A stretch of DNA of 64,000 nt. It comes from Promethearchaeota archaeon. GTDB taxonomy: Archaea > Asgardarchaeota > Lokiarchaeia > Sigyniarchaeales > SOKP01. The translations under genes and the position numbers were made by a program. The stretch is from the NCBI GenBank assembly GCA_048938855.1, contig JBHLLT010000011.1, positions 42,400 through 106,399 on the forward strand, given 5' to 3'. The notes beneath the pieces are model-generated. The model was not told where the DNA came from, did no database searches, and worked only from the letters and a program-made list of their open reading frames with translations. Shown piece by piece: positions 1,355 to 3,185 of the stretch; the first letter of the stretch is position 1, and every line of letters begins with the position of its first letter.

Positions 1355-1473
1355 CTTAAATTATCTTTTTTACTAATTTTAAATATTATAACAATTTGTA
1401 CCCTAAATCAATAGGTTTTTAAATAACTTACTATATTTAAAACAGAATAATAAGTCATTAATTATTTTTATTC

Positions 1474-1521
1474 ATGTCGATTCTAAGAAATATAGCGTGG
1501 CAGTGGCTTTATTGGCATTAA
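1474..1521 (+). promoter_or_regulatory. Putative Trp-rich leader peptide MSILRNIAWQWLYWH with alternative hairpins (attenuator-like) upstream of trpB2
   Basis: ATG 1474 to TAA 1519-1521; TGG codons at 1498, 1504, 1513; TGGCTTTA/TAAAGCCA and ATTGGC/GCCAAT inverted repeats; T-tracts follow. Confidence 0.65.
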
Positions 1522-1672
1522 AGCCAATTGCATTTGATATTTCTTAATCTTATTTTTTCATTTTAATATTTTTACTTCAGAATATTAAAAACTCTTCCTA
1601 AATGCGCGTTAATTATTTTGATTTCCAATTTATTAATGACACACATCTTAAGGTGTGAAAAAACGAATATAA

Positions 1673-3088
1673 TTGGTAACTAAAATGATAGATTACTTTA
1701 AAGGAAGAATTATATTACAGCCAAATGAAATTCCAAAAGATTGGGTAAATATATTACCGACATTACCCTCTCCTATGACGCCCTTAATTAATCCGATGGA
1801 TGGGAGACCTGCACCCCCAGAAATGGCATTTGCTATATTCCCAAAAGAGTGTGTTAAGCAAGAGTTCTCTCTAGAACCTACAATCCCCATTCCAAAAGAA
1901 TTAAGGGAAATTTTTGCAAATTCATATAGACCCAGCCCTCTACATCGGGCATTAGGTTTAGAAAAAGAGTTAGGAATAGAAGGAGAGAAAATCAAAATTT
2001 TTTATAAAAATGAATCAACATCTCCTACTGGCTCTCATAAGCCCAATACTGCCATAACACAAGCATATTATGCTAAAAAAGAGGGACTAAGTGAATTGGT
2101 TACTGAAACAGGTGCAGGACAGTGGGGATCTGCTTTAGCTTATGGATGTTCCCTTTTTGGCCTTAAATGCACAGTATATATGGTGAGAGCAAGTTATTTC
2201 CAAAAGCCAGGGAGAAAAATTATGATGAGATGTTTTAATGCTAAAGTACATCCAAGTCCTTCAAAATTAACAGAATCTGGGAAAAAATTCCTAAATAAGG
2301 ATCAAGAACACCCCGGTAGTTTAGGAATCGCCATATCTGAAGCAATAGAACATAGTATGAGAAGTGATAAAATTAAATATTCTCTTGGAAGTGTAGTCAA
2401 TTTTGTTCTTCTACACCAGACTATTATTGGACAAGAAGTGAAAATACAATTAGCAAAAGTAGGTATTCAACATCCTGATGTAATAATAGGCTGCATGGGT
2501 GGAGGTTCCAACTTTGCAGGTCTAATGCTACCATTTGCAAAAGATAAACTAGAAGGTCAGAGTCAAGATATGGAAATAATAGGCGTTGAACCTCGGGCAT
2601 GTCCCAGTGTATGCAAAGGAGAGTATAGATGGGATTTTGGGGACTCTTCAATGAAAGGGCCAATATTAAAGATGTACACATTAGGTCATAATTTCATCCC
2701 TAGCCCAATTCATGCAGGGGGATTGAGATATCATGGAATGGCTCCGATAATTTCCATATTAAATAATCACGAGATTATAAAAACTACAATGCATCATCAA
2801 ACTGAAGTAATTGACGCAGGTATTCAATTTGCTAAAGCAGAAGGTATAATTCCAGCTCCAGAAAGTGCTCATGCTATAAAAGAAACAATTGATCAAGCTC
2901 TCAAAGCTAAAGACAACAATGAAAAAAAAGTTATTTTGTTCAATCTTAGTGGTCATGGTTTCTTTGATCTGTTAGCTTACGAAAAATATATGAATGGAGA
3001 ATTAGTGGATTATGAATTGCCTACAAGTCAAATTCAAAATTCACTCAAATCAGAAGAAATGCCAAAGATTGATGAATCTCAATTTTAA
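1673..3088 (+). CDS. trpB2: TrpB2, TrpB-like PLP-dependent enzyme (stand-alone tryptophan synthase beta type 2)
   Basis: SPTGSHKPNTA (PLP lysine), TETGAGQWG, GGGSNFAG, HAGGLRYHG, FNLSGHG; start may be ATG 1685. Confidence 0.95.
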   Translation: MVTKMIDYFKGRIILQPNEIPKDWVNILPTLPSPMTPLINPMDGRPAPPEMAFAIFPKECVKQEFSLEPTIPIPKELREIFANSYRPSPLHRALGLEKELGIEGEKIKIFYKNESTSPTGSHKPNTAITQAYYAKKEGLSELVTETGAGQWGSALAYGCSLFGLKCTVYMVRASYFQKPGRKIMMRCFNAKVHPSPSKLTESGKKFLNKDQEHPGSLGIAISEAIEHSMRSDKIKYSLGSVVNFVLLHQTIIGQEVKIQLAKVGIQHPDVIIGCMGGGSNFAGLMLPFAKDKLEGQSQDMEIIGVEPRACPSVCKGEYRWDFGDSSMKGPILKMYTLGHNFIPSPIHAGGLRYHGMAPIISILNNHEIIKTTMHHQTEVIDAGIQFAKAEGIIPAPESAHAIKETIDQALKAKDNNEKKVILFNLSGHGFFDLLAYEKYMNGELVDYELPTSQIQNSLKSEEMPKIDESQF

Positions 3089-3093
3089 ATCAA

Positions 3094-3113
3094 TTTTTTT
3101 TTTTAAAAAAAAA
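3094..3113 (+). terminator. Oligo-T (T11, followed by A9) putative terminator after trpB2
   Basis: T11 run 6 nt after the stop codon; archaeal terminators are oligo-T. Confidence 0.5.
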
Positions 3114-3185
3114 CCATTATTAATTCAAGAAAATCTTAAAATTGAAGGATCTTTTAAATATTAAAATTGATGAATTTGATTCTTC

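Follow-up and report, generated by a model that had tools for sequence, protein, structure and literature searches.

The question raised by this locus is what a 15-codon ORF with three TGG codons (MSILRNIAWQWLYWH*) does 163 nt upstream of trpB2, the gene of a stand-alone tryptophan synthase beta-like enzyme, and on the same strand. The ORF was pointed out in a stretch of 64,000 nucleotides, here called the window, by an earlier note which proposed that ribosomes stalling at the Trp codons control read-through into trpB2. The ORF, the TATA-like box at 1432-1441 and the T6 run at 1553-1558 were all correctly located in that note. Its assignment of the downstream gene holds, trpB2 being matched above the cut-offs of the models, and its attribution of the DNA to an Asgard archaeon agrees with the named records of close relatives, which are Promethearchaeota/Promethearchaeia MAGs. 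We consider it very probable that the element works in cis as a ribosome-read sensor of Trp. Towards the whole mechanism of a leader-peptide attenuator, including termination as its read-out, we lean with much less assurance; both the sign of the response and transcription termination as the regulated step are what we infer from the sequence. The features of the locus are listed in Table 1.

Table 1. Positions of the leader features and of trpB2 in the window.
Feature	Positions	Strand	Sequence or evidence
Two A/T-rich TATA-like boxes	1416-1425, 1432-1441	+	TTTTTAAATA and TATATTTAAA; sequence
Leader ORF, 15 codons	1474-1521	+	ATG 1474, TAA 1519-1521
Closed RNA domain enclosing the ORF	1479-1549	+	outer stem 1479-1493/1537-1549, inner hairpin 1500-1511/1519-1531
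Trp (TGG) codons, proposed sensing codons	1498-1500, 1504-1506, 1513-1515	+	sequence; W-x-W near the stop common to the families
U-tracts, candidate archaeal termination or pause signal	1550-1573	+	UUAUUUUUU 1550-1558, U4 1562-1565, U5 1569-1573
Hairpin PB, U-rich/A-rich	1561-1590	+	UUUUAAUAUUUU / AGAAUAUUAAAA
Hairpin PC, long, with invariant apex (loop/stem)	1607-1638	+	apex UUGAUUUCCAAU; preceded by AAAUGCGC 1601-1608
Hairpin PD	1642-1657	+	CACAUC UUAA GGUGUG; fold and alignment
Shine-Dalgarno-like GGUAA before the trpB2 start	1675-1679	+	GGTAA conserved 6-8 nt before ATG
trpB2, stand-alone TrpB-like PLP enzyme, proposed regulated gene	1685-3088	+	NF009057 643 bits, TIGR01415 595 bits, both above cut-off

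The start codon of trpB2 (ATG 1685) aligns with that of its orthologs, and trpB2 is the single TrpB-like gene present in this genome. It is also the only Trp-pathway gene found there: searches of the 97%-complete assembly for trpA, trpC and trpE gave nothing, while they were positive in all 14 control genomes. In organisms having trpB2 only, the leader would account for the tuning of indole salvage to the need for Trp. At the far end of the gene, the stop codon is followed by a T11 run joined directly to an A10 run (3088-3120), a U-run/A-run palindrome which could be a two-way terminator.

Upstream of the leader lies a gene for a Roadblock/LC7-domain protein (968-1354), whose 3' end is also found upstream of the leader in several related loci. 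Between 1355 and 1672 no ORF of at least 40 codons is present on either strand. The two A/T-rich boxes at 1416-1441 appear to be a candidate promoter of the leader transcript, and the AT at 1433-1434 is almost invariant in alignment A1.

Conservation of the leader ORF

A single genome proves little about such a short ORF, and it is because of its conservation in relatives that it stands beyond chance. All six frames of this 30%-GC genome contain, as the chance level, 44 ATG-initiated ORFs with at least three W within eight residues. Among 2882 intergenic short ORFs, taken up to 450 nt upstream of a gene and on the strand of that gene, MSILRNIAWQWLYWH is the sole one with three W in six residues. 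The same set of 2882 ORFs contains no convincing case of a leader for another amino acid in this genome; the top candidates precede genes that are unrelated or lack a Pfam family, namely a flavin reductase gene, an acyl-CoA synthetase-like gene, a kinase-like gene and two genes without Pfam match.

Related genomes, in which the earlier note had proposed to look for Trp-rich ORFs upstream of trpB2, carry them in nearly all cases, and carry them before the trp operon as well. Promethearchaeota (Asgard) provide 73 distinct trpB2 upstream regions; 61 of them contain a short ORF ending in W-x-W close to its stop, compared to 1 of 73 on the reverse complement. At the trpB2 loci of the same genus the ORF is homologous in 25 of 25, ends about 160 nt before trpB2 and has the consensus MATV(R/K)xxxWQWPW(R/C)WQ*. 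The leader ORFs of relatives contain four to five Trp codons, compared to the three in 15 codons described here. In distant families and classes, including an Odinarchaeia record, nothing but the W-x-W cluster, placed 1-3 codons ahead of the stop, is common to the ORFs. Independent copies of such an ORF are found before trpD, the first gene of the trpDCFBAEG operon, in four relatives which keep the whole pathway, the ORFs ending in ...FRWHWSWRA*, MSTVKIFSWRWQCWWRV*, ...KAWPWHKL* and ...FFWSWSWHY*. The association of the ORF with Trp genes is exclusive. Each genome has a single copy of the 15-nt core motif, at trpB2; one genome has a further copy about 3 kb ahead of trpB1, upstream of a trp operon. 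In the genome analysed here, the only second copy of PC or of AAATGCGC is a chance match inside a coding region.

The relatives are not independent of each other, so that the percentages given here and below overstate the number of independent observations. Despite this kinship, the element occurs in several versions unrelated in sequence, and before two different Trp loci. Several relatives with single-contig genomes have a leader at both trpB2 and the trp operon. In one of these genomes (G055) the leaders of trpB2 and of the trp operon (L088, L100) share a near-identical ORF tail ...SLSLDNKAWPWH and a strong hairpin starting at the stop codon, so that the leader module was evidently duplicated within this genome. 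Five related species (L045, L048, L059, L061, L072) have an intact trpB2 and have lost the Trp-rich upstream ORF, and represent natural loss variants.

The frame of the ORF is conserved. The eight codons before the first Trp are free of stops in the Trp frame in all 46 aligned leaders, whereas the other two frames are free of stops in 14 and 25. In 43 of the 46 loci, the first Trp codon is preceded at a distance of exactly eight codons by its nearest in-frame ATG, and the stop follows the last Trp within 1-3 codons. Indels among relatives are of 3 or 6 nt and in frame, the lineage of the window carrying a 3-nt deletion. The N-terminal half of the peptide varies freely and the residue between the Trp codons is variable (P, A, R, C, S, H, Q), which means that the Trp codons are kept and not the peptide. 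This is the signature of a reading frame maintained for translation, and the pattern of the sequences suggests that the ORF is translated.

Structure of the leader RNA and the U-tracts

The region 1474-1560 folds as a hairpin over 1479-1549 with -23.7 kcal/mol (z = -4.0), a value reached by none of 200 shuffles. In the lineage of the window, codons 2-8 pair with 1537-1549, and one long hairpin encloses the ORF and abuts the U-tract, its end lying 0-3 nt before U2AU6. The earlier note had described an 8-bp hairpin, TGGCTTTA (1504-1511) with TAAAGCCA (1519-1526), extended by GCAG/TTGC, and an alternative pairing of ATTGGC (1511-1516) with GCCAAT (1523-1528), and had taken the two as mutually exclusive. 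The first, with its extension, lies where described and is the minimum-free-energy fold, the second is likewise present in the sequence, and the hairpin that spans the last Trp codons and the stop, for which the note had suggested to look for covariation, is conserved with compensatory changes. Both hairpins exist; they are probably not a terminator/antiterminator pair, and represent two registers of the repeated TGGC against one GCCA. GCAG likewise has alternative partners, 5' or 3'. The 8-bp hairpin alone is unremarkable (z = -1.4), and it is the alternative inner register 1511-1516/1523-1528 that is kept in relatives. There, the TTGGC segments of the third and the fourth Trp pair with the single GCCAA in 85% and 81%, and this near equality makes competition for one 3' arm a conserved property. 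The 8-bp form is specific to the sublineage of the window and neither register is next to the U-tract; we do not regard the two hairpins as the switch. No antiterminator helix, or any helix competing with a terminator, was identified in the leader folds of the window and of relatives.

Because variable regions align poorly, RNAalifold applied to the whole alignment recovered no more than a part of PC, and per-sequence folding projected on the alignment was used instead. It gives five recurrent helices, which besides PB, PC and PD include a helix of the first ORF codons with the first two Trp codons in relatives and a helix, with compensatory changes, of the last Trp codons with the GCCAA just past the stop. 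On the alignment 78% of helix cells are paired, compared to at most 51% when the partners are slid; the covariation score is 0.167, compared to at most 0.097 when slid, and none of 500 shuffles reaches 0.167. Many lineages also have an outer stem, in which the 5' UTR is paired with the conserved CAUUGGAU.AAA located past the stop, and the ORF then lies within a closed three-way junction. The sequences of this stem differ by clade (GGUUUAAU/AUUAAACC, UUCAUUCAAU/AUUGGAUGAA, AUGAUUUA/UUAAAUCA), i.e. the same domain is closed by unrelated sequences in relatives. A strong hairpin starting at the stop codon is found in distant families.

The T-tracts which the earlier note had seen after the ORF are enriched in the leaders of relatives. 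Of 46 leaders, 87% have a run of at least five T located 15-60 nt beyond the stop, whereas in this genome it is found in 30% of random intergenic windows, 39% of windows after gene ends and 26% of windows upstream of gene starts; for runs of at least six T the values are 59% of leaders and 14% of the background. In the leaders closest to that of the window, the distance from the stop to the start of the T run is exactly 31 nt in most cases, and one distant family has a hairpin of 13 bp or more from the stop codon with a T5 6 nt behind it. Among relatives, the U-tract follows the closed domain at a distance of 0 to about 30 nt. U-tracts terminate transcription by archaeal polymerases, with an efficiency raised by aCPSF1/FttA (PMC8716108; PMC11616081). 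A full-length match to this factor above the cut-off (TIGR03675) was not found in this genome; the best match (G000:C34:484968-486269) has 260 bits, the cut-off being 580, and is limited to model positions 174-629, hence without the N-terminal KH part. Hairpins with a T-arm and an A-arm, like PB, were considered as the usual terminators of this genome and rejected, as they are barely enriched after genes (3.7% versus 2.2%). A scan for bacterial-style promoters and terminators was uninformative (1 site, 1.1 expected).

Between the U-tracts and trpB2, PB has eight of nine pairs changed on both sides across relatives, other clades using YTTAGT/ACTAAR, and the PD pair at alignment columns 231/236 is CG in 16, UA in 11 and UG in 6. 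AAAUGCGC together with PC and PD (1601-1657) forms the most conserved non-coding block of the leader and is unique in the genome. PC and PD recur with compensatory changes in the trp-operon leader of one relative, and three trpB2 loci without the ORF retain the T-runs as well as PC and PD. As they persist without the ORF, PC and PD may constitute a separate, second layer of control, and the block could be a protein- or RNA-binding element. An internal promoter in the PC block seems unlikely, since its A/T boxes vary between genomes and the flanking PB and PD covary as RNA. PC as a mimic of the tRNA-Trp anticodon or as an anti-Shine-Dalgarno was also discarded by inspection, its CCA being partly in the stem and its complementarity to GGUAA poor.

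Proposed mechanism and its alternatives

In the mechanism that we propose, transcription would start upstream of 1474 and a ribosome would translate the 15-codon ORF while the polymerase advances. When Trp is plentiful, the ribosome would pass the three UGG codons, terminate at the UAA and leave, and the RNA would close into the 1479-1549 domain, which in relatives would be the three-way junction made of the outer stem, the helix of ORF start and first Trp and the helix of last Trp and post-stop sequence. The polymerase, slowed on the U-tracts right after the domain, would then terminate, and little trpB2 mRNA would be made. When Trp is scarce, the ribosome would stall with UGG in the A site and its footprint (about 1483-1528) would hold the domain open, so that the polymerase could read through PB, PC and PD into trpB2, whose product would make Trp from indole. 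Timing poses a difficulty, as the domain would likewise be held open by a ribosome still on its stop codon, 31 nt ahead of the T6 run; the model needs either rapid release or a long pause. Other features also speak against the mechanism: the spacing between domain and U-tract is irregular, unlike that of bacterial intrinsic terminators, the conserved helices PB, PC and PD have no role in it, neither an antiterminator helix nor a full-length aCPSF1/FttA match above the cut-off was found, and the three loci which have lost the ORF still keep the T-runs and PC/PD.

The leader may be imagined as a conserved RNA motif in which the UGG repeats and hairpins bind a Trp-activated protein (TRAP-like), a tRNA or Trp, the open frame being incidental. 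This would agree with UGG triplets every 6 nt (repeats 3 nt apart), with a nucleotide conservation that includes synonymous sites (TGGCAGTGGCC) and with the base pairing of the Trp codons; we nevertheless judge it very improbable, given the one frame that is open in all leaders, the fixed distance to the ATG, the stop close to the last Trp and the in-frame indels, given that distant families keep only W-x-W and the stop and not the repeat, and given that neither a TRAP gene in the genome nor an Rfam match, T-box included, was found. Still less probable is that the ORF encodes a functional Trp/Arg-rich small peptide, e.g. a signal or membrane-active one, which is merely the neighbour of trpB2. 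Trp-rich antimicrobial peptides do resemble leader peptides of the WQWPWRWQ type, which are short, Trp-rich and often cationic. Leader peptides are also documented to act in trans (PMC7298713). The free variation of the N-terminal half and of the residues between the Trp codons argues against such a peptide, as do the constant strand and distance at which the ORF accompanies two different Trp loci and the absence of a signal peptide and of partner genes, and the covarying RNA and the U-tract would be left unexplained. A starvation-induced frameshift at the Trp codons carrying the ribosome in a hidden frame to trpB2 is hardly credible, as the -1 frame runs into TAA 1545-1547 and the +1 frame into TGA 1534-1536, both within 30 nt and far from 1685.

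The alternative deserving most attention leaves the sensor as it is and changes its output. The same ribosome-read Trp sensor would regulate not termination, but initiation of trpB2 translation or else the fate of the leader mRNA, in its stability or its processing; the PC/PD hairpins or nuclease access to the U-rich stretch might serve as the route. Such an output would give a role to PC and PD, which are idle in the termination model in spite of being the most conserved part of the leader and occurring also in a trp-operon leader. The irregular distance from hairpin to U-tract also favours it. In the minimum-free-energy fold of the window, the trpB2 ribosome-binding site is engaged by the 5' half of PC in a long-range helix, and the mycobacterial Cys leader ORFs are outlined in bioRxiv 10.1101/834739 as attenuators of operonic gene expression. 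Among relatives, however, no helix sequestering the trpB2 ribosome-binding site is conserved, since this site and the start codon have a different partner in each genome, and this speaks against a control of trpB2 by translational masking alone. The strong enrichment of U-tracts right after the ORF, and the possibility that PC and PD, persisting in loci without ORF, are a separate layer of control, also count against this output, which we therefore consider rather unlikely.

No published archaeal leader-peptide attenuator was found in the full-text literature searched, in which all cases are bacterial; this agrees with the view of the earlier note that the mechanism is not established in archaea. 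A review of archaeal transcription-translation coupling never mentions attenuation (PMC8116511). To the most far-reaching claim, that this is the first ribosome-mediated amino-acid attenuator of Archaea, independent of the bacterial ones, and that its branched ORF-enclosing domain and oligo-U form a conditional terminator switched off by a Trp-stalled ribosome, we would give an even chance. If true, Asgard archaea use transcription-translation coupling for gene regulation with a polymerase that is archaeal and eukaryote-like, and a conserved Trp leader in this group, the closest known relatives of eukaryotes, would imply that their ribosomes keep near enough to the polymerase to steer it. The locus would offer a natural and compact test system for archaeal termination and coupling, now argued mostly by analogy with Rho (PMC11616081). 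The leader ORF is an overlooked gene, and is now annotated.

Comparison with known systems

Trp-responsive control of Trp genes is also exerted by TRAP of B. subtilis and the TrpY repressor of Methanothermobacter, which are protein sensors of free Trp, TrpY acting on DNA operators; unlike these, the Asgard element has a maintained ORF and RNA covariation. A TRAP gene (TrpBP, PF02081) was not found in this 97%-complete genome, and instead of the approximately 9-11 (G/U)AG repeats of a TRAP-type site the leader has 3-5 UGG triplets in one maintained frame. An arrest peptide of the TnaC type was considered and rejected. TnaC has a conserved spacing of W12, D16 and P24 and lies upstream of a catabolic gene, whereas here the non-Trp residues vary freely and the downstream genes are biosynthetic.

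Among bacterial leaders, the polycysteine short ORFs of mycobacteria (bioRxiv 10.1101/834739), as far as that preprint outlines them, are similar in being unannotated ORFs rich in the cognate codon before the matching biosynthesis genes. They differ in being bacterial, in sensing Cys and not Trp and, again as outlined there, in being leaderless, whereas the Asgard outer stem uses the 5' UTR in many relatives. The Bacteroid-trp motif (RF01692), listed in Weinberg et al. 2010 (PMC2864571), is likewise a cis-regulatory leader of Trp genes, found in Bacteroidetes; it is bacterial and without match to the window or to five other loci, and a descent shared with the Asgard leader would be conjecture. 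On 1300-1750 there is no Rfam match to RF01692, to the enterobacterial trpL attenuator (RF00513) or to the T-box (RF00230) up to E = 10, and no Rfam family reaches the gathering score in five related loci. A Bacteroidales MAG (L077) has a trpB2 52% identical to that of the window, with an upstream ORF (approximately 90-210 nt) ending in ...MANWCWHPPKGWL (...NWCWHPPKGWL), which from its sequence is probably a bacterial Trp leader; no Rfam family, Bacteroid-trp included, reaches the gathering score in it.

The trpL attenuator is similar to the Asgard leader in several respects: an ORF of about 14-16 codons with Trp codons clustered a few codons before the stop, a place within the 5' leader of Trp biosynthesis genes and on their strand, Trp codons and stop within a hairpin with a U-run after it, and an expected logic in which stalling gives read-through. 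The Asgard leader differs in being archaeal, in its W-x-W spacing (the Trp codons of trpL are adjacent) and in that no 2:3 antiterminator or 3:4 terminator pair was found in it. The whole Asgard ORF lies inside the structure abutting the U-tract, the first regulated gene is a stand-alone trpB2 or trpD, and termination would use the archaeal polymerase and oligo-U (PMC8716108).

By analogy, the design would thus be closer to a one-structure terminator occluded by the ribosome than to the four-segment trpL. The E. coli pyrBI leader has such a one-hairpin design, in which the leader ORF overlaps the terminator and the occupying ribosome blocks termination. The proposed Asgard design shares with it the ribosome-occupied leader ORF overlapping a terminator structure; pyrBI senses UTP via polymerase pausing, not an amino acid via hungry codons, and has a bacterial hairpin-plus-U terminator. 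Judged from these comparisons, what would be new here is the combination of a bacterial logic with an archaeal polymerase and a different RNA architecture.
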